The notes under the pieces are model-generated. The model worked only from the letters and a program-made list of their open reading frames with translations, was not told the origin of the DNA and made no database searches. The position numbers and the translations under genes were made by a program. Source: a virus (lineage: Duplodnaviria > Heunggongvirae > Uroviricota > Caudoviricetes). From it: a stretch of DNA of 64,000 nucleotides. This document shows positions 4,466 through 43,675 of the stretch, piece after piece (positions within the stretch are counted from its first letter, which is position 1; each line of letters opens with the position of its first letter). Location of the stretch: the IMG/VR virus record IMGVR_UViG_2872147552_000001. The stretch is one strand, 5' to 3'.

Positions 4466-4486
4466 GATTAATTCCTTATCGTAAAT

Positions 4487-5718: not shown

Positions 5719-5732
5719 GAAAACAAATTGTT
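5719..5732 (-). promoter_or_regulatory. class A palindromic leader motif
   Basis: gaaaacaaattgtt upstream of the start. Confidence 0.45.
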
Positions 5733-9790: not shown

Positions 9791-9807
9791 AGAAAACAAA
9801 TTGTTTT
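9791..9807 (-). promoter_or_regulatory. class A palindromic motif, second copy
   Basis: agaaaacaaattgtttt 35 nt further upstream. Confidence 0.4.
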
Positions 9808-9890: not shown

Positions 9891-11924
9891 TTACTTAACC
9901 TGGTGGCCAGGTTTAGCACCAGCATCCGGGCTTAACAGGAAGATATCTTTCCCGCCGGGGCCAGCAGCCATCACCATGCCTTCAGAGATACCGAAGCGCA
10001 TTTTACGTGGTGCCAGGTTAGCCACCATAATGGTGTGACGACCAATCAGTGCCTGTGGATCTGGATAAGCGGAACGGATGCCTGAGAAGACATTACGCTT
10101 TTCACCACCGAGATCCAGCGTCAGGCGAAGCAGTTTGTCAGAACCTTCTACAAACTCTGCGTTTTCAATCAGCGCCACGCGCAGGTCAACTTTGGCGAAG
10201 TCGTCAAAGGTGATAGTTTCCTGAATCGGGTCGTCAGCCAGTGGGCCAGTTACCGGTGCGGCTGTGGCTTTCACTTCTTCTTTGGATGCTTCCACCAGTG
10301 CTTCAACCTGCTTCATATCGATGCGGTTATACAGTGCCTTGAACGGATTTACTTTATGGCCCAGCAGCGGTTGCTGGATACCATCCCAGGTCAGTTCTGT
10401 ATTCAGGAATGCTTCTGCACGTTCAGTCAGTTTCGGCAGTACCGGCTTCAGGTACGTCATCAGCACGCGGAACAGGTTAATGCCCATAGAGCAAATCGCC
10501 TGCAGATCGGCATCGCGACCTTCCTGCTTCGCCACCACCCACGGAGCCTGTTCATCGACATAGCGGTTAGCCAGGTCAGCCAATGCCATGATTTCACGGA
10601 TAGCTTTACCAAATTCGCGGCTTTCCCATGCTTCGCCAATCACTTCAGCGGCATCAGTAAAGGTTTTGTACAGTTGCGGGTCAGCCAGTTCGCTTGCCAG
10701 CACGCCGTCAAAACGCTTGTTTATAAAGCCTGCATTACGGGAGGCCAGGTTAACCACTTTGTTCACGATATCGGCATTCACGCGCTGAACGAAATCCTCC
10801 AGGTTGAGATCGATATCATCAATGCGCGAAGAGAGTTTCGCAGTGTAGTAGTAACGCAGGCTGTCGGCGTCAAAATGATTCAGCCAGGTGCTGGCTTTAA
10901 TAAAGGTGCCGCGAGACTTGGACATCTTCGCGCCGTTCACCGTCACATAGCCGTGAACAAACAGGTTGGTCGGCTTGCGGAAGTTGCTGCCTTCCAGCAT
11001 GGCAGGCCAGAACAGGCTGTGGAAGTAAACAATATCTTTACCGATGAAGTGGTACAGCTCGGCGGTGGAGTCTTTCTTCCAGTATTCATCGAAGCTGGTG
11101 GTATCGCCGCGCTTGTCGCACAGATTCTTGAAGGAACCCATGTAGCCAATCGGCGCGTCCAGCCAGACGTAGAAATATTTGCCCGGCGCGTCCGGAATTT
11201 CAAAACCGAAGTAAGGCGCATCGCGGGAGATATCCCACTGTTGCAGGCCGGATTCAAACCATTCCTGCATTTTGTTCGCCACCTGCTCCTGCAACGCGCC
11301 GCTGCGGGTCCATGCCTGCAACATTTCGCTGAAAGAAGGCAGATCAAAGAAGAAGTGTTCGGAATCACGCATTACCGGGGTAGCGCCAGAAACCACCGAT
11401 TTCGGCTCGATCAATTCAGTCGGGCTATATGTTGCGCCGCAGACTTCACAGTTATCGCCGTATTGATCTGGCGCTTTACATTTCGGGCAGGTGCCTTTTA
11501 CAAAACGATCCGGCAGGAACATGCCTTTTTCCGGGTCGTACAACTGAGAGATAGTGCGGTTTTTAATAAAACCGTTCTCTTTCAGGCGAGTATAGATAAG
11601 CTCAGACAACTGACGGTTCTCTTCGCTGTGCGTCGAGTGATAGTTGTCATAGCTGATGTTAAAGCCTGCGAAATCAGTCTGGTGTTCCTGACTCATTTCG
11701 CCAATCATCTGCTCCGGTGTGATACCAAGCTGCTGCGCTTTCAGCATGATCGGCGTACCGTGGGCATCGTCGGCACAGATGAAATTAACCTCGTGGCCGC
11801 GCATTCGCTGGTAACGAACCCAGACATCAGCCTGGATGTGCTCCAGCATATGGCCGAGGTGGATTGAGCCGTTAGCGTACGGCAGCGCGCACGTCACCAG
11901 AATTTTCTTCGCGACTTGGGTCAT
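9891..11924 (-). CDS. metG: methionyl-tRNA synthetase
   Basis: 677 aa from [26 protein letters not shown] (HIGH motif) with KMSKS and C-terminal tRNA-binding domain; very close to enterobacterial MetG from memory. Confidence 0.9.
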
Positions 11925-12081
11925 AGTAGGCATTACTTCTTTGTAGTGAAAAGGGGCTTGATAGTAACAAAATGGCCTTATGTCTGCCATGTGATAACAG
12001 CATTTCTCATAAATGATTAAATGTCGTAGCTGGAGTACACTACAAGGCGACAATTGCGCAAATTAAAATAAAGGAGACGGG

Positions 12082-13182
12082 ATGAGCGAGTCCAAATCGC
12101 CGGATGCCCTGAGAGCAATGGTAGCCGGTACGCTGGCTAATTTTCAGCACCCAACCCTGAAACACAACCTGACTACGCTTAAAGCGTTACACCATGTTGC
12201 GTTGATGGATGACACACTGCATGTCGAACTAATCATGCCTTTCGTGTGGAATAAGCCTTTTGAAGACCTGAAAGAGCAATGTAGTGGTGATCTGCTCCGT
12301 ATCACTGGCGCAAAGGCTATTGACTGGAAGCTGTCGTACAACATTGCCACGCTTAAGCGCGTCAAAAACCAACCAGGCATTAATGGCGTTAAGAACATTA
12401 TCGCCGTCAGCTCAGGCAAGGGCGGCGTGGGTAAATCCTCCACGGCGGTAAACCTGGCACTGGCGTTGGCTGCTGAAGGTGCGAAAGTTGGTATTTTGGA
12501 TGCCGATATCTATGGTCCATCAATTCCAACCATGCTGGGTGCGGAAAACCAACGTCCAACCTCACCTGACGGTACTCACATGGCACCTATCATGTCTCAT
12601 GGCCTGGCAACCAACTCTATTGGTTATCTGGTCACCGACGACAATGCAATGGTGTGGCGTGGACCGATGGCCAGCAAGGCGCTGATGCAGATGTTGCAGG
12701 AAACTCTATGGCCTGATCTGGACTATCTCGTTCTCGATATGCCGCCGGGCACTGGTGATATTCAGTTGACGCTGGCGCAGAACATTCCTGTAACTGGTGC
12801 GGTTGTGGTAACTACGCCGCAAGACATCGCGCTGATCGATGCGAAGAAAGGCATTGTGATGTTCGAAAAAGTCGAAGTGCCGGTACTGGGTATCGTCGAA
12901 AACATGAGTGTGCATATTTGCAGTAACTGCGGTCATCACGAGCCAATTTTTGGCACCGGTGGCGCACAGAAACTGGCCGAGAAATACAACACGCAGTTGT
13001 TAGGCCAAATGCCACTTCATATCTCTCTTCGTGAAGATCTGGATAACGGAACACCAACCGTTATTAGTCGTCCAGATAGCGAATTTACGGCTATTTATCG
13101 TGACCTCGCAGATCGCGTTGCCGCCCAAATGTATTGGCAAGGTGAAGTAATACCTGGCGAAATCGCATTCCGCGCAGTGTGA
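12082..13182 (+). CDS. apbC: Fe-S cluster carrier ATPase ApbC/Mrp
   Basis: P-loop SSGKGGVGKS, CxxC (CSNCGHH); divergent from metG as in enterobacterial chromosomes. Confidence 0.9.
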   Translation: MSESKSPDALRAMVAGTLANFQHPTLKHNLTTLKALHHVALMDDTLHVELIMPFVWNKPFEDLKEQCSGDLLRITGAKAIDWKLSYNIATLKRVKNQPGINGVKNIIAVSSGKGGVGKSSTAVNLALALAAEGAKVGILDADIYGPSIPTMLGAENQRPTSPDGTHMAPIMSHGLATNSIGYLVTDDNAMVWRGPMASKALMQMLQETLWPDLDYLVLDMPPGTGDIQLTLAQNIPVTGAVVVTTPQDIALIDAKKGIVMFEKVEVPVLGIVENMSVHICSNCGHHEPIFGTGGAQKLAEKYNTQLLGQMPLHISLREDLDNGTPTVISRPDSEFTAIYRDLADRVAAQMYWQGEVIPGEIAFRAV

Positions 13183-13183
13183 T

Positions 13184-13210
13184 AAAAAGGCGGTGCATTG
13201 CACCGCCTAA
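13184..13210. terminator. bidirectional terminator between apbC and umuD'-like gene
   Basis: aaaaaggcggtgcattgcaccgcc hairpin; T-run on minus strand. Confidence 0.6.
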
Positions 13211-13219
13211 TCAGTTCTC

Positions 13220-13609
13220 CTACATCACGGGACAATCATCAAACTCGCCACTTCTTGCGTCGTTGATAATGTGAGTGATCACACCAAACACGGCATTGCT
13301 GCCCGTGCATCCATCGTCATCCTTTGGCAATGCTTCCTTCTTACCGGTTCTTAAATCCTCCAGATGCTGACGTGGGTACTTCCGGTATCTTTTTACGCGA
13401 TATTCCCCATCCAGAGCGCATACAAGCAGAGAACCATCAACCGGGGTAAGCGAGGAATCGACCACCAGCAATGCACCCTGTAATATTCCCTCACGATGAT
13501 GACTATCAGCTGCCCTCATGAAGTAGGTCGCTGAAGGATGTCTAATTATCTGCTGATCAAGAGAAATACGGCTCTCAGCATAATCCGCCGCAGGAGAAGG
13601 GAAGCCCAT
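13220..13609 (-). CDS. umuD: UmuD'-like protein (pre-truncated, HumD-like)
   Basis: 129 aa beginning M-GFPSPAADY, the residue after the UmuD self-cleavage site; retains S24 peptidase fold motifs (HPSATYF, Ser and Lys positions). Confidence 0.7.
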   Translation of the reverse strand: MGFPSPAADYAESRISLDQQIIRHPSATYFMRAADSHHREGILQGALLVVDSSLTPVDGSLLVCALDGEYRVKRYRKYPRQHLEDLRTGKKEALPKDDDGCTGSNAVFGVITHIINDARSGEFDDCPVM

Positions 13610-13625
13610 AGCGTTTTGCCCTCAA

Positions 13626-13645
13626 TACTGTTCATTTATACAGTA
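13626..13645. promoter_or_regulatory. LexA (SOS) box
   Basis: TACTGTtcatttatACAGTA = CTGT-N8-ACAG, 17-36 nt upstream of the umuD'-like start. Confidence 0.7.
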
Positions 13646-13728
13646 TACATGAAAGAAGCTCACTCAGTGCAACTGATCGGTACATAGCACCAGACAAAGG
13701 AACGTTATTTTCTCGAACAAGAAAAGGT

Positions 13729-13743
13729 AGAAAACAAATTGTT
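13729..13743 (-). promoter_or_regulatory. class A palindromic motif
   Basis: gaaaacaaattgttt; part of the 50-bp unit repeated at 18003-18038. Confidence 0.45.
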
Positions 13744-13744
13744 T

Positions 13745-13765
13745 AAGGCCACAACTAGTGGCCTT
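13745..13765 (-). terminator. conserved GGCCAC hairpin
   Basis: aaggccacaactagtggcctt right after the gene ending at 13782. Confidence 0.45.
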
Positions 13766-13781
13766 AATGGAGAAGGGATGC

Positions 13782-14306
13782 TTATTGGCTATGGCTAAAA
13801 ATCAAATGAGACACTTCATTTGGTTGTAGCTCGTCAAGATCCGGGGCCACAAAACCTTTTCCAAAAGACTTCACAAGTGATTCACCAGCCGCATCATTGT
13901 CACCTATTACGCGAAAGTCATACGGCAGCATTGCCAGTTGACGACGTAATCCTGCTGAGAAAGTCGAACCTAACAGCGCCCACGAATTTCCGCCCGCGTT
14001 GTGCACTGCTGCACTTTTAAAAATCGACTCAGTTATCCATATCGGTCCATCTTTTAAAGGAAGATAGGTTCCCCATAGTAGCTGTCTGCCGTTCGCTCGT
14101 GTGAAATACCGGGCCATCTTCGGATTGCTATGCTGCTTAGGAGCGCCTGGTCTGTATGTCTGATACCCGGCCAACATCCCATCAAACCTGTATAGAGGGA
14201 ACGTAACAACTCCTTCGCTTTCATCGATCCACTGTCTATATGGATGCACATCATGGCGGTAGTTACGAGTTAGCAAATGAGCTTCCAGCTTTCCATATTT
14301 GGTCAT
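13782..14306 (-). CDS. hypothetical protein
   Basis: ORF track frame; start at MTKYGK ATG (alternative ATG at 14345 would overlap the upstream gene). Confidence 0.4.
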   Translation of the reverse strand: MTKYGKLEAHLLTRNYRHDVHPYRQWIDESEGVVTFPLYRFDGMLAGYQTYRPGAPKQHSNPKMARYFTRANGRQLLWGTYLPLKDGPIWITESIFKSAAVHNAGGNSWALLGSTFSAGLRRQLAMLPYDFRVIGDNDAAGESLVKSFGKGFVAPDLDELQPNEVSHLIFSHSQ

Positions 14307-14319
14307 AACTTCGCATCCC

Positions 14320-15135
14320 TCATAACACTTCCCATTTATCACCATATTTCTCCATAGCTCTTAGCCAGTAAACATGGCCACTAGGCATAGTGATGTGAGG
14401 CTCGCCAAACTCTTCTCCATGCACATCAAAGATGTCCCCAACAGAGAATTGGGGGATTTCTACGCCGTTTTCACCTATATGCGTAATTCGTATACGTTTC
14501 GGTTGAGATTCTCCCCCTTTGAGCGAGTTGTTCACTGCTCTGGCAATCTTCTCCCGCAATTGCTGCGTTCCGTGGTACTGAACCGCAATATCCCTCAACT
14601 CATTCACCAGTTCTCGAATCTGGTGATCTTTAAGCTCATTATTTGAGTGATGGGTAACAACTCTGGTTAATTCACCCTTGTCTTTTGCTCTTACGTATGC
14701 AGCTCTTGTGCATTCGACCCATGTATTACCGCCTACATTAACTTCGTAGATTAGGCTGGACTTATCTGTCAATTCGGAACAAATACGGGCCGTGGTCTGG
14801 CAACTAGAGCATTCGCAGTTATCGCGGAAACCGTGATCTACCGGTCGAGAAAGAGGTTTAACTTTTTCATCCAACTTCATCACAGCATCGTGATAAGCGT
14901 TCCAGCCGTCATCTTTACCAAGTTGATAAATCTCTGAAGGCTCCATGTAGTCTATATCGCAACCTTCTTCATCCGATCTATCTGGTCGCTTCCCTGGTAA
15001 TCGCTCATAAAAACGATTTCTGTCTCGACGTTCGGCTCTCAGTGCTAACGCAAGAAGTTGCTCAAGCGAGGTATTTGCACCAGCAATAATTTCATTGAGA
15101 ATATCTTCTGTGAGATCTTTCGCTACCGTGCTCAT
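14320..15135 (-). CDS. hypothetical protein (271 aa)
   Basis: Long ORF with Cys cluster CECSSCQ; operon context. Confidence 0.5.
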   Translation of the reverse strand: MSTVAKDLTEDILNEIIAGANTSLEQLLALALRAERRDRNRFYERLPGKRPDRSDEEGCDIDYMEPSEIYQLGKDDGWNAYHDAVMKLDEKVKPLSRPVDHGFRDNCECSSCQTTARICSELTDKSSLIYEVNVGGNTWVECTRAAYVRAKDKGELTRVVTHHSNNELKDHQIRELVNELRDIAVQYHGTQQLREKIARAVNNSLKGGESQPKRIRITHIGENGVEIPQFSVGDIFDVHGEEFGEPHITMPSGHVYWLRAMEKYGDKWEVL

Positions 15136-15515
15136 TTATCTCTCTCAGTATGTTGCGATGGCGTAAATTTGACGACATCAAATATTTTGGATGGCATCAA
15201 CTTTATCCGCGAGCTTAGTTCGGCTCTTCTCTGTAATGCGGTTAATAATGTTTTCGTTCTGACGCCTTCGTGTATCCTCATCCCTGGCACAAGAACTACA
15301 TCGCAGGGGAGATGCTCAGGTGACAAATCATTTTGGGCATCGCTAATCAGTCGTGTAATCTCTCTTTCAAGCCGACCGCCTAGCTCTGTTTTAGTGCAAT
15401 GTTCTGACCAATCACCAGCCTCAAGCAGCGCGAGAATGCTTAAAATATCGTCCAATAGATCAGTGGTATTATCGACTTCCTTCTGAAGCTCACCGGCTAC
15501 TGATTTATGCATCAT
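15132..15515 (-). CDS. hypothetical protein (127 aa)
   Basis: Start/stop overlap with neighbours. Confidence 0.45.
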   Translation of the reverse strand: MMHKSVAGELQKEVDNTTDLLDDILSILALLEAGDWSEHCTKTELGGRLEREITRLISDAQNDLSPEHLPCDVVLVPGMRIHEGVRTKTLLTALQRRAELSSRIKLMPSKIFDVVKFTPSQHTERDK

Positions 15516-16165
15516 TCGTCATCCTCATCCGAGTCATCCTCATCACAGGATGAGAGTAGTGGGTTAGTCATTCGCCCTACTTGAGTGGCGTAGCCACGCC
15601 GACAGAGATTGCGCAGCACACTGTATATTTCGAACATCTCGGTTCGTTCATCGCCAACATCAAGCTCAGATGCTATAGCGTGGCATTCAGTCGCGAGAGC
15701 CGATATTTTCTGAAATAACTCTGCATTATTCACTGTTCGACTCCTGCGGCGTTCTGGTAGTGACATCCAGTGTGTGACATTGCTAATCAGACCATATTCA
15801 TTAGTTTGAGGATGGTTGCCGTTAGCGTCTCCGTATTTAAGACTCTCCATAAAGCCATAATGCCTATCACCATTAACGCTCACAAAGCCGTAATAAGCAG
15901 GTATAACGCCGATCTCACACGTAACCAGTAAAGGAAAACTAGTTCTCCAATTTAGCTCGCCAATTACAGGCATTCGCTCACTACAGCTTATCCAACCATC
16001 CTTAGATGCGGCTGTATTGGCATAGGCCTTACGGTGCTTCTGTAACTCTGCTGCAATCGCTCTCACGACTTCAACTGGTGCCCTTGCAGCAAACTCAATG
16101 TTGGTGATCAGCTCATTAAGATATTTCTCGCTTGGGTAGCATTTCTTATTGTTAACGGTGGTCAT
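15512..16165 (-). CDS. hypothetical protein, DUF551-like phage protein
   Basis: WISCSERMP...THWMSLP pattern; acidic C-terminal tail. Confidence 0.45.
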   Translation of the reverse strand: MTTVNNKKCYPSEKYLNELITNIEFAARAPVEVVRAIAAELQKHRKAYANTAASKDGWISCSERMPVIGELNWRTSFPLLVTCEIGVIPAYYGFVSVNGDRHYGFMESLKYGDANGNHPQTNEYGLISNVTHWMSLPERRRSRTVNNAELFQKISALATECHAIASELDVGDERTEMFEIYSVLRNLCRRGYATQVGRMTNPLLSSCDEDDSDEDDE

Positions 16166-16350
16166 TAGGCAGCTCTCTCAACAACAAGCAATTCGTCGTA
16201 GTCATAATCAGTTTCGGAACCATCCGTACCGAACAGAGTCACTTTGTCATTTTCCATCCAAAAAGATTTAACCGCACATTGTTGACCTTTAGATGTTATG
16301 AGCACATCACCAGGGATTACGTCTTCAGCGCGAACCTCTAGTGTTCTCAT
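16165..16350 (-). CDS. hypothetical protein (61 aa)
   Basis: Tightly packed between neighbours. Confidence 0.35.
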   Translation of the reverse strand: MRTLEVRAEDVIPGDVLITSKGQQCAVKSFWMENDKVTLFGTDGSETDYDYDELLVVERAA

Positions 16351-16769
16351 CGTGCTGCCCCCTCTTTGGTGAAAATGCCTGCTGCAATGCTGTTTATGAT
16401 GCTGTCAGTGCATGGAGTAGAAAGCTGGGCATCTCCAGCAATTTTCATGACCTCAACATCCGCATATCGAATACCGAGGTGTATCAGACCGGCTATACCT
16501 GACTTAAGTCGAACATTTTCCATAAACAGATCCTTTTCCCGCTGTTTAACGGTCTCCAGCTCAACACGCAACTTCTCAATTTCGGCAGCCATGTAGTAAC
16601 CAACCATAGCGAAAGTGGCGAAAGGGTAGTCCGAATCATCAGGAGATACGGAGGCCATTAGCAGACCATCGTGCATGTTCTGGCTTCCATCAGTGATAGA
16701 TACCGCATAAGAATCGCTGGTTTCCCGCTTATACAATACGACGACCGGGTTCTTGATTTTCTCTCTCAT
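16347..16769 (-). CDS. hypothetical protein (140 aa)
   Basis: 4-nt overlap with flanking genes. Confidence 0.45.
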   Translation of the reverse strand: MREKIKNPVVVLYKRETSDSYAVSITDGSQNMHDGLLMASVSPDDSDYPFATFAMVGYYMAAEIEKLRVELETVKQREKDLFMENVRLKSGIAGLIHLGIRYADVEVMKIAGDAQLSTPCTDSIINSIAAGIFTKEGAAR

Positions 16770-17311
16770 TACGATGCCTCTAACTTGTCTAACTCTTTCA
16801 GCCCTTCACGTACCGCGTTCACAATGCGTTCCAGATACTGGTATTTCGGGTTTGGTACCGTTGGCCAGTCGGCATACCACGGATCATCACCAAAGAGATT
16901 CAGTAGTTTGTTACCGACGCCGAAACAGCAGCAGCTTTCTTTTACGTCATCGGCGTTTTCCGCCTCGTCCCACATTTCGCGAGCCAGTACGGCGTCTATT
17001 TCTCTCTCTCTTCGTAACTTTATGATTTCTGACTTCACGAAAAGCAGATTTGCATCGTTGTCATCGTCGACCGTGCTTCGCAGTTGAGGGTCGAAATAGC
17101 CGATTAGATACTCGTTGCTGACCCGCTTAATGAACGTCTGCACATCATCACCGCCCATAGCAAACCAAGCCGCAGTCCACGCTTTTCCGTAGCAGGTGAT
17201 GGTGATTCTTCCCTTACCAGGTTCGTAGTTTTCAATCATCACTCGAACCGGATCGAGGCGTTCCAGATCCGTCAGCACAAAGGAAAGAACATCTATTTTT
17301 TCGATCTTCAT
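16769..17311 (-). CDS. hypothetical protein
   Basis: ATG overlaps the stop of the HD-domain gene (ATGA coupling). Confidence 0.45.
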   Translation of the reverse strand: MKIEKIDVLSFVLTDLERLDPVRVMIENYEPGKGRITITCYGKAWTAAWFAMGGDDVQTFIKRVSNEYLIGYFDPQLRSTVDDDNDANLLFVKSEIIKLRREREIDAVLAREMWDEAENADDVKESCCCFGVGNKLLNLFGDDPWYADWPTVPNPKYQYLERIVNAVREGLKELDKLEAS

Positions 17312-17949
17312 GCAGCCTCCCACGCGCTCCAGATCAGCGATTTGTGTTTTTCATAACGTTTGATGTGTACCGGTTTCAGAAGCGCAATACCTTCAGTGAC
17401 TTTCGCCATTGCGCTTAATAACAACGGGTGTTCTATACCTATCCTCTCCATGTACTCGACAACATCAGCGTTGGCACCAATCTCCTTCCCGTTAAAAAGT
17501 ACGTCCAGCATCAGCTCTTTCTCTGCAAGGTAGATAGCTGAAAACTCAGGATCGCGACTCACGATAGAAGAGGTATTGTCGAGCAGGTCAGCCAGCTTGA
17601 TCATGCGCGTCTGCATGTCGAGATTTTGCTCCAGCTCCCGGACATTGATGATGAAACGCTGTATTCGATTGCCGTCTTCTGGCCTTGCAATGTTGGTCAG
17701 AGCCTGAACCATTTCAGCTACGCGCTCACCGAAGTGATCACGAACCATCTCTATGGTTACATGGGTGTCTTCGACCACATCATGCAGAAGCGCCGCGATT
17801 TGCATCTCCACGGTTCCGTCATGCAATGCAACAATCTCTCGGACAGCAACCGGGTGGTTGATGTAGTCTTCGCCGGTATATTTTCTTTTCTGACCAACGC
17901 CACCATGAGCGCCAGCGGCGAACATATGAGCTTCGGAAATACTAGACAT
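17308..17949 (-). CDS. HD-domain phosphohydrolase, RelA/SpoT-type (p)ppGpp hydrolase-like
   Basis: HPVAVREIVALH ... AALLHDVVEDT (His...HD motif) as in the SpoT/Mesh1 hydrolase domain; no synthetase domain. Confidence 0.55.
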   Translation of the reverse strand: MSSISEAHMFAAGAHGGVGQKRKYTGEDYINHPVAVREIVALHDGTVEMQIAALLHDVVEDTHVTIEMVRDHFGERVAEMVQALTNIARPEDGNRIQRFIINVRELEQNLDMQTRMIKLADLLDNTSSIVSRDPEFSAIYLAEKELMLDVLFNGKEIGANADVVEYMERIGIEHPLLLSAMAKVTEGIALLKPVHIKRYEKHKSLIWSAWEAA

Positions 17950-18002
17950 TCTTAACTCCGTTGTTTTCTAGTTGTGGTTATTTTCACAAATAAGAAAAGG
18001 TA

Positions 18003-18017
18003 GAAAACAATTTATTT
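18003..18017 (-). promoter_or_regulatory. class A palindromic motif
   Basis: gaaaacaatttattt in the leader of the HD-domain gene. Confidence 0.45.
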
Positions 18018-18038
18018 AAGGCCACAACTTATGGCCTT
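18018..18038 (-). terminator. conserved GGCCAC hairpin
   Basis: aaggccacaacttatggcctt after the gene ending at 18069. Confidence 0.45.
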
Positions 18039-18068
18039 TATTTATTCATGCCGAAGGATTTGTAGCGT

Positions 18069-18449
18069 CTAATTGCCGGATAAAATGGGGTGAGGTGCTT
18101 GCCAGTAGGCTCCACCGGTCCATGTGAACCCCATGCGAATAAGAGTGTTTATTGCGGCTTTGGTAGACTCCGATTCGACACTGGCTTTTCGAAACTCTTG
18201 AACCTCTTTCGCCAACTTGTATGTAATTGTGCAGGGGACGATTGCAGCCCAGCCTTTCTCATGACTGTTAATGACCATCTGGATGTGACCATCCAGAATA
18301 GGTTGATTAGGCATGTTATTGAAAATGTCTGCCTGTTTTTGAATGTGAAGAAAAAGCCTTGCCAGCTCCATTTGCTCACTACGAGACAAGGGATTATCAA
18401 GAGGGCTTTTTGCAAAAGCGGCTATACGCTGTGCGTCAATGCCAAACAT
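18069..18449 (-). CDS. hypothetical protein (126 aa)
   Basis: ORF; start overlaps the upstream gene stop. Confidence 0.45.
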   Translation of the reverse strand: MFGIDAQRIAAFAKSPLDNPLSRSEQMELARLFLHIQKQADIFNNMPNQPILDGHIQMVINSHEKGWAAIVPCTITYKLAKEVQEFRKASVESESTKAAINTLIRMGFTWTGGAYWQAPHPILSGN

Positions 18450-19153
18450 CAGCGCACCTCACCATCTTTATGGCTGGAGTTAACTTCCGCCATTAAATGT
18501 CTGACGTAATCGACAAGAGAGCCGCCTGGTGGAATCTGGCATTCCTCAACTAACTGGAAGTAGATATCCGCTGCATTACGTGTATTGCTACCCGCGCATA
18601 TTCTTTCTTCCCGAAGTGCATGAAGCTCGTTGATCAAACGGTCACACTCTCCGTTACGCTGATCCACAACGGCCTCAAGCTCTGCGACGCGTTCACCTGG
18701 CGTCTTACCTTCTTTGCGTTGGATGGTAACGACGAAATCGCCAATTGCAGGGACGTTGTAATCCAGCTCAAGGTAGTTTTTGGCACCGCTGCGGACGAAC
18801 TCACCCGCGAACATGGTGGCGAACATCGCAGAGGCCACTTCGCCGTTGAAAAGTGACTCCAGATCTAACGGAGTCCCGGCATCAAGAGCCTCTTTTGCTG
18901 TATCCATTGCATCCATGAACCGATCAAACTCATTGGCGCGCTTTTCCAGGTTTTTCCATTGCTCGCTCCAACGTTTGGCAACGAAGTCTATGAATGTTTT
19001 CGCGGATTCATCAAAATTCCCCTCAAACTTAACGATGCCTTTATCAATAATGATCTGGCCTACCGCATCCTCTGCATAACCTTTCAATGTAAACTTGAAA
19101 GGAAAATCGGAATGGCCTGTGACGTTAAAATGCTCTAACTGGAGGTTGCTCAT
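18449..19153 (-). CDS. hypothetical protein (234 aa)
   Basis: ORF; class B palindrome upstream. Confidence 0.5.
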   Translation of the reverse strand: MSNLQLEHFNVTGHSDFPFKFTLKGYAEDAVGQIIIDKGIVKFEGNFDESAKTFIDFVAKRWSEQWKNLEKRANEFDRFMDAMDTAKEALDAGTPLDLESLFNGEVASAMFATMFAGEFVRSGAKNYLELDYNVPAIGDFVVTIQRKEGKTPGERVAELEAVVDQRNGECDRLINELHALREERICAGSNTRNAADIYFQLVEECQIPPGGSLVDYVRHLMAEVNSSHKDGEVR

Positions 19154-19192
19154 GTGTTTTCTCTTATCGTTTAGTTACTACATTCTTACATA

Positions 19193-19215
19193 AACTAAGT
19201 AAGTATTTACCTATC
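19193..19215 (-). promoter_or_regulatory. class B palindrome
   Basis: ctaagtaagtatttacctatc. Confidence 0.4.
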
Positions 19216-20899
19216 ATTTAACGCGTTTGAAAACGTATACGCTGACTGTGATCCCTGTGTCTTCAAACTCGTTGGTAAACGACTTCCCTCTGGCATAAAC
19301 GTAATTATCCATCGTCATCCAGTCCAGTATTGGCGCAGTGCCCGGCAATACTGCTACAAGACGCCCGCCGACTTTCAGATGCCCCAGCGCAGCCAGCGTG
19401 TGCTCTCTATGACGACCAAGCGAGTACGGCGGGTTCATAACGATTTTGTCGAACTGATAACCTACGTTGTCCTCAGACCACTTTATGAAGTCGCAGCAAA
19501 TCGTGTTCGTATACCCTTTTCCGCGCAGGATATCAGCGAAGAGAGGTGCGATTTCTATGCAGGTAACATCTTCCAGATCGGCGTTAATATAGGCCAGAAG
19601 ATCCCCACGTCCGGCTTGAGGCTCCAGCAGCTTCTCACCAGGCTTCAATTCAGTGGCTCTGGCAACGTACTCAGCAATCAAGCGTGGGGTAGGGTAGAAC
19701 TGGTGTGATTTTGTATCCGGTATTAAACCGGTAGCCACAATCGTATTTAGCGTATGGACGATGTCATACGGGAACTGCCAGTGCTTTTTCTCCTGCACGC
19801 CGCCAATGAAGCTCAGTGTGCGCTCAAGCTCTTCCACCTGCGACTTCTGGAGAGCTGAATCAGAGAAGTACCATACGCCTTTGTCTTTGCTCAATCGCCC
19901 GTCACGAAGCGCAGTGCGAACCGGCACGGAGATCGTCTTCTGGATTAACCCGAACTGCTTTGGTGCCCGTGTTTTTGGCGCGGTGCGACATGGCGCGGGG
20001 ATTGCAGCAGGCATACTGTAAGCCAGCACCTCATTCAACTTCCAGGCCACGTCAGGATGTATTTCAAAGTGAACGTTGCCGTTCTTGAACATCTTCACGC
20101 GCATCAGATTTCCATCGACGTTCATCCAGTCACCGGTCTGGCAGTCGTTTGCCCGATACGCAGCTGATAGCACCTCAGCAGTGCGGTTGATGGTAATAAA
20201 TTCTTTGTGCGCGAAGAAATGAAGCAAGACACGCAGATCGTCGATGTAGTCCTCTTTGCGATAGTTCACGCTAACGCTGTCCCGCCAGAAATCAGAAATG
20301 CAGTCAGCGATTATCAGCCGCTCGCTGAAACCGTTTGTCTTATTTGTCTTGTGCGCAGGACTCAGCGCCTTAAACAAGCCATACACGCGCTCAGAGAGAT
20401 ATTTGTGCCTGTCATTCAGCAAATTAAGCATCGTGGGTATGACCGTTTCTGCTTTGAACTCCGGTACACCAACGAACTCTTTAACCTTCATCTGGTAGCC
20501 GGTTCTGTCAGTTTTGATGACTTCCTGTTTGCCCTCTATAAACTGCTCGCGCCACTCATCTCGACGGGAAGCTGGCATGATCAGCAAAACGTTAGTCATG
20601 TCCGTGACCTTCCTCCAGTACTCGGCCCAAATATTCTGTTTCACCCATTCCAGATCGACTTTATCCAACCAACCTCGATTTAAACGCGAGCGATCTTCAT
20701 CTGGTCGATGGTTTAGTCTCAGCAGGCGATTAATCATGTTGTGGCGTTCGTCGCCATAAACGAAGTCGTGTACCTGATACATGAAGGCGATCTCTTTCTC
20801 GCACTCGGCCACAATTTCGTGGATGACGTTCATTTCCTGCCGATAGTCGATAGCAGTGTTTGAGTTGGCATCGTCGATGATGGAAAGGGCTGTATTCAT
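19214..20899 (-). CDS. DNA N6-adenine methyltransferase with large N-terminal domain of unknown function
   Basis: C-terminal third has FYPTP, EPQAGRGDLL (SAM-binding) and NPPY catalytic motif; about 380 aa N-terminal with no recognised motif. Confidence 0.65.
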   Translation of the reverse strand: MNTALSIIDDANSNTAIDYRQEMNVIHEIVAECEKEIAFMYQVHDFVYGDERHNMINRLLRLNHRPDEDRSRLNRGWLDKVDLEWVKQNIWAEYWRKVTDMTNVLLIMPASRRDEWREQFIEGKQEVIKTDRTGYQMKVKEFVGVPEFKAETVIPTMLNLLNDRHKYLSERVYGLFKALSPAHKTNKTNGFSERLIIADCISDFWRDSVSVNYRKEDYIDDLRVLLHFFAHKEFITINRTAEVLSAAYRANDCQTGDWMNVDGNLMRVKMFKNGNVHFEIHPDVAWKLNEVLAYSMPAAIPAPCRTAPKTRAPKQFGLIQKTISVPVRTALRDGRLSKDKGVWYFSDSALQKSQVEELERTLSFIGGVQEKKHWQFPYDIVHTLNTIVATGLIPDTKSHQFYPTPRLIAEYVARATELKPGEKLLEPQAGRGDLLAYINADLEDVTCIEIAPLFADILRGKGYTNTICCDFIKWSEDNVGYQFDKIVMNPPYSLGRHREHTLAALGHLKVGGRLVAVLPGTAPILDWMTMDNYVYARGKSFTNEFEDTGITVSVYVFKRVK

Positions 20900-41482: not shown

Positions 41483-41700
41483 TTATCCACTGGATAGATC
41501 CAAATAAGAGATCCCAAGTAAGATCAAATAGAAGATCCAAAGAGATCCCAGATCGCCTCTAGCCGTTGCGGTTACTGGTCTGAAAGGGTGTTGCCATCCA
41601 CTATGGAGAGCAAAGAAACCTCTGTAGAGAGCTGAATAACCGCTATGAAGAGTAAAACAACCACTCTGGAGAGCTGTATATATCCACTGTAGAGAGTAGA
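41483..41700. promoter_or_regulatory. origin-like unit 1: DnaA box, GATC cluster, iteron array
   Basis: TTATCCAC at 41483; six GATC in 41497-41554; five approx 21-bp-spaced iterons CCACTnTrGAGAG 41596-41700. Confidence 0.6.
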
Positions 41701-41808
41701 GCACATTGTCTTTTATGGATAACTTAATGACTTAATTCTTCATTAACATACTGATATACATAGATATATTTTAAACTCTACTCTTAGTCATGATTCTTAT
41801 GTCCTTAA

Positions 41809-42098
41809 ATATCCACAGAAGAGTAGAGTTACCTGTTCTTGAAATCCTCTGATTTTTATCCACAGGCCCGATCCAGTAATTCAGATCACAAAGAGAACCA
41901 AAGAGACCCATAAAGACCCAATAAGATCCCCGCCCACCTCAAACCGTTGTGCCATCTGCCTTCAGACATGATCGATATCCACTATAGAGAGCGAATAATC
42001 CACTATAGGGAGCAAAGCAACCACTATAGAGAGGAGAAAAACCACTATAGACGGTAGGATAACCGCTGTGATGAGTGCTACTATCCACTGTAATCAGC
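41809..42098. promoter_or_regulatory. origin-like unit 2 (incC-like): DnaA boxes, GATC sites, iterons before repA
   Basis: ATATCCACA 41809, TTATCCACA 41856; GATC sites; six iterons 41976-42098. Confidence 0.65.
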
Positions 42099-42138: not shown

Positions 42139-43194
42139 ATGAGCGAAAACGGCAATAAAAACATAGCGATCGTTGAAGCATTTTCAGAAACAGATAAAAA
42201 GACAGGCGAAGTTGTTACGTTGGTTCCTAACACTAATAACACTGTTCAGCCTGTTGCTTTGATGCGTCTGGGCCTCTTCGTTCCGACGCTGAAATCGACA
42301 TCCAGAGGAAGAAAGGGGCAAATGGTCTCTATGGATGCCTCTGCTGAACTCAAACAGCTGTCTCTGGCAAAAGCCGAAGGGTACGAAGACATAAGGATCT
42401 CTGGCCTTCGGCTTGATATGGATAACGACTTTAAAACGTGGGTGGGAATAATCCACGCGTTTGCCAAACACAAGGTCGTTGGCGATACTGTCACGTTGCC
42501 GTTCGTTGAGTTTGTAAGGCTGTGTGGCATTCCGACCGCCAGGTCATCAGCGAAGTTACGCAAACGCCTGGACAGTTCGCTAAGCCGTATTGCCACAAAT
42601 ACCATCTCGTTCCGTAGTAAAGGCTCTGATGAGTTTTACGTAACGCATCTTGTGCAAACGGCAAAATATAGTGTCAAGCACGATACGGTCGAACTGAAAG
42701 CAGATCCCAAGATTTTCGAACTCTACCAGTTCGACAAAAAGGTTCTTCTGCAACTCCGGGCTATAAACGAACTCTCAAGAAAAGAATCCGCTCAGGCGCT
42801 TTATACTTTTATTGAAAGTTTGCCGCCTGATCCGGCACCAATATCACTAGCCCGTTTACGCGCCAGACTTAATCTGACAAGTCGCACTATTACTCAGAAT
42901 GCGACGGTAAGAAAGGCTATGGAACAGCTGCGAGAGATAGGATATCTCGATTACACGGAAGTTAAGCGCGGAAACTCGGTCTACTTCGTCATCCACTATA
43001 GGCGGCCAAAGTTACGCCAGGCACAAATATCAACAAAAATCGATAATGATGAGACGGAATATAGCCTCCCAGATGAGAATCAAGATGACATTATCGACGT
43101 TGTGCCTGACGAAAAAGAAGGCAAAATGGTCATGTTGAGTAAAGAAGAACTGGCGCTTCTCGAAGAGTTGCGCAAGGCAAAGACTCGCAAATAG
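42139..43194 (+). CDS. repA: replication initiator RepA (P1/RepFIB iteron-binding type)
   Basis: [77 protein letters not shown] recalled as hallmark of P1/RepFIB RepA; iterons on both sides. Confidence 0.85.
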
Positions 43195-43196
43195 CC

Positions 43197-43675
43197 CAAC
43201 CACTGTAGTTAGTAGTAAGGCTCACTATCCACTGTAGTGAGCCTTACTTATATCTGTAATTCGCTATCCACTATAGTGAGTATCGTTATCTGTTGATAAC
43301 CACTGTAGGCAGTAGAATGCAAATACTGAATTAAATGTTAGTGATCACTAACACTGATGAAACAAGGGCTGCGAGGTTAGTGGTCACTGGGTATCTTGGA
43401 AAATTTACTGTCTATAGTGGTTGTTGTCGCCCTCATCTTTGAGCGTATCCACTGTGGCGAGTGGATATCCACTGAAAACAGCAAAGGCTTACTCACCATA
43501 GTGTATACCCGCTGGACATCTCACTCCAATACTCACCATAGTGGTTGTTTGATGCGAATGAAAGGCTGTCTACTCGCTACAGTGGTTAGCAGATATGTAG
43601 GAAGAGAGGACTGCAGACCACAGTGGATAATGAGCTGATACGAATGCGGTGAGCTGGCTACTCACCGCAGTGGTT
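43197..43675. repeat. incA-like iteron array downstream of repA
   Basis: At least ten CCACTGTAG / CTATAGTGG type iterons in both orientations. Confidence 0.65.

Follow-up and report, generated by a model that had tools for sequence, protein, structure and literature searches.

What are the eight genes between positions 13715 and 18040 of a 64,000-nt stretch (the window) of the IMG/VR virus record IMGVR_UViG_2872147552_000001, and why do two nearly identical repeats bracket them? The window carries these genes on its minus strand, and the first of them has the motifs of a (p)ppGpp hydrolase. The original prediction was that they might be an undescribed host-takeover or anti-defence cassette. 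The answer favored here, which is held with considerable confidence, is that an SSU5-type phage-plasmid has here its variable, 'ea-like' operon of accessory genes, led by the hydrolase gene paSpo, with repeats that would serve as terminator-promoter and recombination units.

The kind of element involved is indicated by its relatives. Region 13200-18500 is 97-99% identical to non-mobilizable Escherichia coli plasmids of ~110 kb (rep_cluster_488), and phages SSU5, CMS-2020a, Cyrano and PhiR41_1 are also among its best DNA matches. The window is therefore part of an E. coli SSU5-type phage-plasmid.

The lead gene, paSpo (17308-17949, minus strand), encodes a 213-aa small alarmone hydrolase (SAH) with a stand-alone RSH hydrolase domain. 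Pfam HD_4 matches residues 8-135 of the 213 (E = 1.4e-18), and the NCBIfam spoT_relA model aligns through profile positions 1-123 of 687 only. The protein has H..HD..ED..D motifs, which align with the HPIAV, LLHDVIEDT and KLAD..N motifs of SpoT (PDB sequence matches are to SpoT, Rel and MESH1), and it lacks a synthetase domain. Across 33 homologues with 43-88% identity, no variation is seen at R22, H32, P33, H56, E60, D61, D121 and N125, and hardly any at D57. In an AF2 model (pLDDT 96.5, pTM 0.92) the protein adopts the predicted fold of MESH1, SAH and SpoT hydrolases. Every one of the 41 PDB matches returned by Foldseek at E <= 0.001 is a MESH1, SAH or Rel/SpoT hydrolase domain; the SAH matches include a (p)ppApp hydrolase and Lmo0812, and TM-scores reach 0.82.

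This protein is 88% identical to SSU5_099/PaSpo across all 213 residues, with no gaps and with its 26 substitutions mostly in the C-terminal helices. SSU5_099 is annotated as a guanosine polyphosphate pyrophosphohydrolase, and the window gene is syntenic with SSU5_098 to SSU5_100, occupying the same position after a methylase operon. The two alleles are alike in length, genomic position, single hydrolase domain, intact H/HD/ED/D motifs and modeled MESH1-like fold. They differ in that the window allele is followed by more genes, and by other ones, than the SSU5 allele, and in that activity is known from the SSU5 protein. By all sequence and structure criteria tested here, the lead gene is assigned to the PaSpo subfamily of SAHs. 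Motifs, HD_4, fold model and orthology thus agree with the first identification of the gene as a phage-borne SAH without a synthetase domain. The idea that the cassette might be undescribed does not survive, because full-length identity makes the lead gene, as far as homology can tell, the E. coli allele of an experimentally studied protein that has been tested against five toxSAS enzymes (PMC7229694).

In those experiments, SSU5 PaSpo neutralized all of the toxSAS tested, namely CapRel, PhRel, PhRel2, FaRel and FaRel2 (Jimmy et al. 2020, PMC7229694, Table 1), and phage SAHs such as PaSpo were described as stand-alone (PMC7229694). Co-expression of PaSpo permits CapRel-SJ46 to be overexpressed and purified (PMC9712102), and the enzyme serves as a routine means of detoxifying CapRel and FaRel2 (PMC9712102; bioRxiv 10.1101/2024.07.05.602228). 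SAHs also restore aminoacylation of tRNAs with pyrophosphorylated CCA ends (bioRxiv 10.1101/2021.04.30.441581). By analogy with its SSU5 orthologue, the window protein would be a Mn-dependent RSH hydrolase that cleaves off the 3'-pyrophosphate of (p)ppGpp and (pp)pApp, as well as that which toxSAS enzymes, CapRel and FaRel2 among them, add to the CCA end of tRNA. Its most likely role would be to shield the element from toxSAS abortive infection, to damp the host stringent response, or both. Toxin-antitoxin modules that pair a toxSAS with an SAH, for example Cellulomonas marina FaRel-ATfaRel, would share this hydrolase chemistry and toxSAS neutralization. Unlike them, the window SAH is stand-alone: none of the ten open reading frames (ORFs) from 13220 to 19153 matches a RelA_SpoT synthetase in Pfam, NCBIfam or PHROGs, and no toxSAS gene is adjacent.

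Are the seven companions of paSpo its partners? The eight minus-strand ORFs lie between the repeats from 17949 down to 13782. All eight start with ATG, each is preceded by a purine run resembling a ribosome binding site (RBS), and they are joined by ATGA or 1-nt overlaps, as expected of the tightly overlapping operon described at the outset. Such translational coupling could favor the view that the eight genes act together against host defences or in host takeover, with PaSpo dependent on its seven neighbors. So could the adjacency of paSpo and gene 2 (genes are numbered in the order of transcription) in E. coli, Salmonella SSU5 and Klebsiella elements. This interpretation is nevertheless very unlikely. 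PaSpo alone neutralizes toxSAS in heterologous expression (PMC7229694), and genes 3-8 are replaced, added or lost singly in near-identical plasmids. Gene 2, which is 87% identical to SSU5_100, also resides in early-left operons of Klebsiella lambdoid prophages, where it is flanked by an MT-A70 methylase gene on one side and xis/int on the other and has no HD gene close by, and a PADLOC scan of the ten ORFs from 13220 to 19153 gave no match.

The extent of this exchange is considerable. In near-identical plasmids (L001 and L003-L007) the operon ranges from 8 to 12 genes in differing combinations. Some carry a ClpX-type zinc-finger gene or additional Ea22/Eaa/Eae genes, and in others the toprim gene is missing. 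Plasmid pERB3f3 and phage PhiR41_1 lack the HD gene and gene 2 and begin with an eae-type gene. The HD-gene 2 pair occurs in ~50 Escherichia plasmid records, compared to ~170 with the adjacent backbone genes, such that paSpo and gene 2 are present in at most ~30% of E. coli relatives. With lambdoid phages, parts of genes 2-5 share 93-97% nucleotide identity. Because the companions vary gene by gene among near-identical relatives, they are best read as a moron-type lambdoid 'ea' accessory array rather than a fixed multi-component system. They would be independent genes exchanged with lambdoid and P1-like phages, and the notion of a cassette with unknown partners is given up here.

The lambdoid early-left ea/moron region (Ea22, Eaa, Eae, DUF551) is the closest parallel to this array. 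It contains the same families, often with >90% nucleotide identity, and it has the same tight head-to-tail packing and gene-by-gene mosaicism. In contrast to it, the window operon resides on a plasmid-replicating phage beside humD, metG and apbC, not between recombination genes and int/xis, and it is led by an SAH, which is absent from the lambdoid ea regions examined.

The repeats that bracket this operon, at 13704-13768 and 17977-18041, are identical at 57 of 65 bases (88% by direct count), and are thus longer than the ~37-50 bp first quoted for them. A 47-nt core of the repeat has exactly two matches in the window, with 0 expected in shuffled sequence. On the coding (minus) strand, each 65-nt unit consists of a hairpin, AAGGCCAC(N5)GTGGCCTT, that starts 15-31 nt past the stop codon of the preceding gene, followed by a palindrome AAA(C/T)AAnTTGTTT, the sequence TTTTCTACCTTTTCTT and a -10 region. 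In the upstream unit (17977-18041, minus strand), the hairpin spans 18038-18018, the palindrome AAATAAATTGTTT spans 18017-18005 and an extended -10 element, TGTGAAAAT, spans 17988-17980. The downstream unit (13704-13768, minus strand) has its hairpin at 13767-13743, its palindrome at 13744-13732 and a weakened -10 region, GAGAAAAT, with the hexamer at 13712-13707. Predicted folding energies are -12.1 kcal/mol for the upstream hairpin and -16.2 kcal/mol (z = -4.6) for the downstream hairpin.

Conservation is uneven between the two copies. An alignment of nine regions shows that, from the palindrome through GAAAAT, the sequence ahead of the HD gene varies little or not at all among E. coli, SSU5 and Klebsiella. 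Upstream copies retain the extended -10 element across genera, and in Klebsiella the pairing of the hairpin is kept through two compensatory changes (GGCCAC/GTGGCC to GGCTAT/ATAGCC). The -10 part of the downstream unit is variable or replaced in relatives (L007, L008). We infer that the unit joins an intrinsic terminator to a promoter under regulation, for which the palindrome would be the operator. The upstream hairpin would first terminate the preceding DNA-methylase operon, and the promoter behind it, with its palindrome centered near -40 and its extended -10, would then drive the eight-gene operon. The hairpin of the downstream unit is predicted to end this transcript. Its promoter half, which is aimed at humD, is probably vestigial, because it is degenerate or replaced in relatives and humD has a LexA box of its own.

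Do these repeats merely reflect a terminator and operator that recur throughout the element? In part they do. The palindrome AAACAAnTTGTTT occurs 19 times in the window compared to 6.3 expected, a ~3-fold excess; examples are at 4486, 4971, 5721, 6624, 7109, 9743, 9794, 22545, 23274, 33489, 45219 and 59891. It is almost always intergenic, near -40 of minus-strand promoters or between the -10 element and the RBS, and at 9794 and 9743 two palindromes 51 bp apart flank one promoter. Promoters near 5721 and 9794 share the promoter half of the unit, with a different hairpin or none. These sites are probably the operator set of some regulator of the element. The palindrome-promoter half is therefore common property of the element, whereas the complete 65-nt unit with its GGCCAC hairpin is specific to the two sites that flank the operon. 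No description of the 65-nt unit or of its palindrome, and no paper on 13-mer palindromes of this kind, was found in the literature searched.

The two units have the same orientation, and homologous recombination between such direct repeats would excise or install the whole operon and leave one chimeric unit behind. The product of such an event was sought with a synthetic deletion junction, in which 13400-13768 and 18042-18400 were joined over a single unit and used as a search query. Three plasmids, NZ_CP075723, NZ_CP139126 and NZ_CP045191, match this query end to end in one piece with 97.7-98.8% identity, and the complete E. coli genome set yields the same three. In their annotations apbC and humD are followed directly by the homologue of the window gene at 18069, and the operon is missing. 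The repeats thus mark the limits of a segment that some relatives have and others lack, as had been proposed for checking.

The solo units of all three plasmids are chimeras of the two copies in the window. That of NZ_CP075723 (L009) is of the downstream type up to the 3' arm of the hairpin and of the upstream type thereafter, which places the crossover in TGGCCTT at the right end. In NZ_CP139126 and NZ_CP045191 (L011 and L012) the switch occurs within the first nine bases and the remainder is of the upstream type, with the crossover in GTTATTTTC at the left end. Chimeric solo units like these are the product expected of direct-repeat recombination, or of the reverse insertion.

Breakpoints in other relatives also fall at the edges of the unit. 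When 17800-18200 was used as a query against all plasmids, E. coli relatives that lack the HD gene align only from query position 176-179 (window 17975-17978), the promoter-proximal edge of the unit, and the nucleotide alignment of PhiR41_1 confirms this class of breakpoint. Elements from Salmonella, Citrobacter and Enterobacter align only up to query position 249 (window 18048), just beyond the other edge. For P1-like plasmids of 92-103 kb, the alignment is limited to query positions 178-242, which are the unit alone. At the downstream copy, a 1.1-kb insertion of two genes in pAVS0968-B abuts window position 13701, a recurrent breakpoint that is seen in L001 and in the P1-like, SJ46-like plasmid NZ_CP064676.1 (L008).

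A discrete 65-nt unit with an imperfect palindrome, a hairpin and breakpoints at its edges, present in two unrelated phage-plasmid families, might be taken for the recognition site of a site-specific recombination system that moves cassettes, as attC does in integrons, and not for a mere substrate of homologous recombination. We regard this as extremely unlikely. An integron-like cassette would differ from what is seen here in two respects: no integrase, recombinase or transposase domain is encoded in the module or by its immediate neighbors, and the change of parental type lies at one end in some of the chimeric solo units and at the other end in the rest, rather than at one fixed site. Furthermore, most genomes carry a single copy of the unit, exactly where a terminator and a promoter are needed.

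Another account holds that the repeats are duplicated regulatory sequences only, and that the presence or absence of the operon results from replacement of blocks between co-resident elements, such as P1-like and SSU5-like phage-plasmids, without excision. Blocks of this kind do exist. P1-like plasmids, P7 and SJ46 have humD in common with the window and, restarting at 13701, also the unit and the 3' end of the toprim gene (gene 8). Moreover, the three plasmids with solo units are close relatives, and each solo unit is nearly all of one parental type. Yet block replacement still needs a crossover in or at the unit, and so differs from direct-repeat recombination only in the partner molecule. 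A junction built from the window's own flanks also matches at 98-99%, and replacement without excision is judged improbable.

The 65-nt unit is found at 685 places in 575 plasmid records, about one-fifth of which carry two copies, and among plasmid records it is confined to SSU5-like and P1-like phage-plasmids. In P1-like L008 and in phage P7 (L019, 93214-93278) the unit lies beside humD, after two plus-strand genes (upf94.2 and upf93.6 of P7). The same gene pair is also found as an insertion in one SSU5-like plasmid (L001, 4584-5525), which shows that the two phage-plasmid families have exchanged blocks here. In P7, IS903 adjoins the unit.

Several observations weigh against parts of the favored explanation. 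A simple sigma-70 consensus scan did not call the proposed upstream promoter, whose -35 element is poor. The uridine tract past the hairpin is interrupted (AAACAAUUUGUUUU), which makes the strength of the terminator uncertain. Of several hundred relatives, only three proved to be deletion variants, and their backbones are closely related, with 5 single-nucleotide polymorphisms in the left flank and 0 in the right. The two junction types may have arisen in separate events, or one heteroduplex may have given both, as sister products or by conversion. The repeats were not involved in other deletions of this region (L010, L003). Finally, the literature search found no paper in which PaSpo or another SAH protects a phage or phage-plasmid in a real infection.

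A precedent for repeats of this type is provided by the promoter-early stem-loop (PeSL) cassettes of T4-type phages (Arbiol et al. 2010, PMC2839356; Comeau et al. 2014, PMC4122927). These composite promoter-stem-loop motifs flank non-essential genes, which recombination removes or inserts, leaving one chimeric cassette (PMC2839356; PMC4122927). Like PeSLs, the 65-nt unit combines a repeated, predicted terminator hairpin with a putative early-type promoter in tens of base pairs, and it flanks non-essential genes in a hyperplastic region. It also marks the boundaries of insertions and deletions between relatives, of which the shorter genome keeps one chimeric copy. There are also differences. 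The host element is a temperate phage-plasmid and not a T4-type phage, there are two full copies rather than ~50, and an eight-gene operon is flanked instead of a single ORFan. In addition, the promoter of the unit has an operator-like palindrome and a weak -35 element. A strong sigma-70 consensus promoter and circular excision products (mini-circles) are further features of PeSLs; in the unit, the extended -10 is invariant among upstream copies. With promoter and terminator activities that are predicted, the 65-nt unit is best considered an analogue of PeSLs and not a member of the class.

A bolder and more tentative possibility, to which we give a distinctly minor chance, is that the unit is a portable, PeSL-like recombination adaptor of temperate phage-plasmids. 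Whole accessory or counter-defence operons, in this case the one headed by paSpo, might then be excised, lost, reinstalled and moved between the SSU5-like and P1-like families, including CapRel-carrying SJ46, possibly by way of circles, and the promoter that accompanies each copy would be wired to a palindrome-binding regulator.

The companion genes had all been listed as unknown, apart from a DUF551-like and a Cys-rich product. Those two features are found again in genes 5 and 7; the last gene, however, proves to have a recognizable toprim/primase core. Gene 2 (16769-17311, minus strand as are all the companions; 180 aa) matches Pfam PF26211 (Phage_phiTE_072), which has no assigned function, and its predicted fold gives no informative structural match. 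Gene 3 (16347-16769, 140 aa) encodes an Ead/Ea22-like accessory protein (phrog_492, E = 1.1e-20), and homologous positions in relatives are annotated ead or Ea22-like. Gene 4 (16165-16350, 61 aa; phrog_15283, E = 2e-46) has no assigned function and is kept in most relatives as WP_001355905. Gene 5 (15512-16165, 217 aa) encodes the DUF551 protein (Pfam, E = 2.7e-8). Its N- and C-terminal segments are mosaic, with three different PHROGs matching separate segments, and it is 93-97% identical in nucleotide sequence to lambdoid phages HK140, Emek and HF4s.

Gene 6 (15132-15515, 127 aa) matches phrog_19524 (E = 3.8e-88), which has no assigned function, and has no match in Pfam, NCBIfam or PADLOC. 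Gene 7 (14320-15135, 271 aa) encodes a mosaic, Cys-containing ea-type protein that matches phrog_21749 and phrog_20174. Homologues along its full length are confined to a few E. coli SSU5-like plasmids; beyond these, just a short central segment is shared, with many DUF551/Ea-type proteins. Gene 8 (13782-14345) encodes a toprim/primase catalytic-core protein. It matches phrog_849 ('DNA primase', E = 5e-53) over profile positions 143-333 of 435 and is without the zinc-binding domain. RefSeq relatives are named 'toprim domain-containing protein' and start at 14306, and the 3' end of the gene together with the 65-nt unit is also present in P1-like plasmids. A split primase, with the Cys cluster of gene 7 serving as the zinc finger for gene 8, was considered and dropped, as gene 7 has no primase PHROG match. 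The HD protein is the sole NCBIfam match among the ten ORFs, Rfam at E <= 1 gives nothing across 13000-19500, and PDB sequence searches with the toprim and DUF551 proteins gave nothing.

The constant left flank of the variable operon is formed by humD and its LexA box (13220-13645). The UmuD-like gene (13220-13609, minus strand) matches Peptidase_S24 and phrog_811, and the box, TACTGT-N8-ACAGTA at 13626-13645 (minus strand), is annotated identically in phage P7. Farther to the left, 9891-13182 carries full-length housekeeping genes, metG for methionyl-tRNA synthetase on the minus strand and apbC/mrp for an Fe-S carrier on the plus strand. A junction between chromosome and prophage at metG/apbC was considered and rejected because the circular plasmids' own annotation includes both genes. 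The two are kept in E. coli relatives. In pGS04EC-1 a DUF4145 gene takes their place, and the left breakpoint of this replacement falls exactly at the palindrome at 9794-9806.

On the other side, the operon just upstream of paSpo is headed by a gene (19214-20899, minus strand) for a 561-aa DUF4942/S-adenosylmethionine-dependent DNA methyltransferase, whose SSU5 homologue is labeled 'putative DNA modification methylase'. Its presence fits an early region devoted to evasion of host defences. Elsewhere, four tRNA genes lie at 62943-63596 on the minus strand: Ser(tga), Thr(tgt), Tyr(gta) and Asn(gtt). tRNA-Thr is reportedly one of two targets of the toxSAS FaRel2, and the element thus carries a spare tRNA-Thr alongside a hydrolase of the tRNA-repairing kind. 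Iteron-like direct repeats CCACTATAGAGAG with 21-nt spacing, at 41591-42050 and 43222-43488, flank a plus-strand ORF of 351 aa (42139-43194); together these probably represent the origin of plasmid replication and the gene for its initiator. A conserved minus-strand translation-start context, AAAGGAAAAACACATG, that recurs at many starts of genes, among them 23246, 33461, 40494, 44719, 51057, 56249 and 57662 suggests a shared strong RBS/leader module.

Much of the biology assembled here is known already, in that the hydrolase is an experimentally used enzyme and its companions are ordinary interchangeable accessory genes. The new observation is a modest one: the operon is bracketed by a 65-nt unit that occurs in two phage-plasmid families, and it is at this unit that the operon has been lost. 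For annotation, the 'HD domain-containing protein' carried by hundreds of phage-plasmids from clinical E. coli, Salmonella, Klebsiella and Enterobacter can be read, by homology, as a PaSpo-type hydrolase that would neutralize toxSAS. A large DefenseFinder survey of phage-plasmids recorded few anti-defence systems for the SSU5 group, with none among its Salmonella members, and it does not mention the PaSpo hydrolase (bioRxiv 10.1101/2025.09.12.675607). The paSpo gene is probably missed in that count. Neither the annotation nor the mechanism overturns current understanding. For the evolution of these elements, a short terminator-promoter unit marks, and probably mediates, the gain and loss of a whole accessory operon, and its occurrence in both SSU5-like and P1-like phage-plasmids provides a testable handle on how cargo is reshuffled in medically relevant elements.

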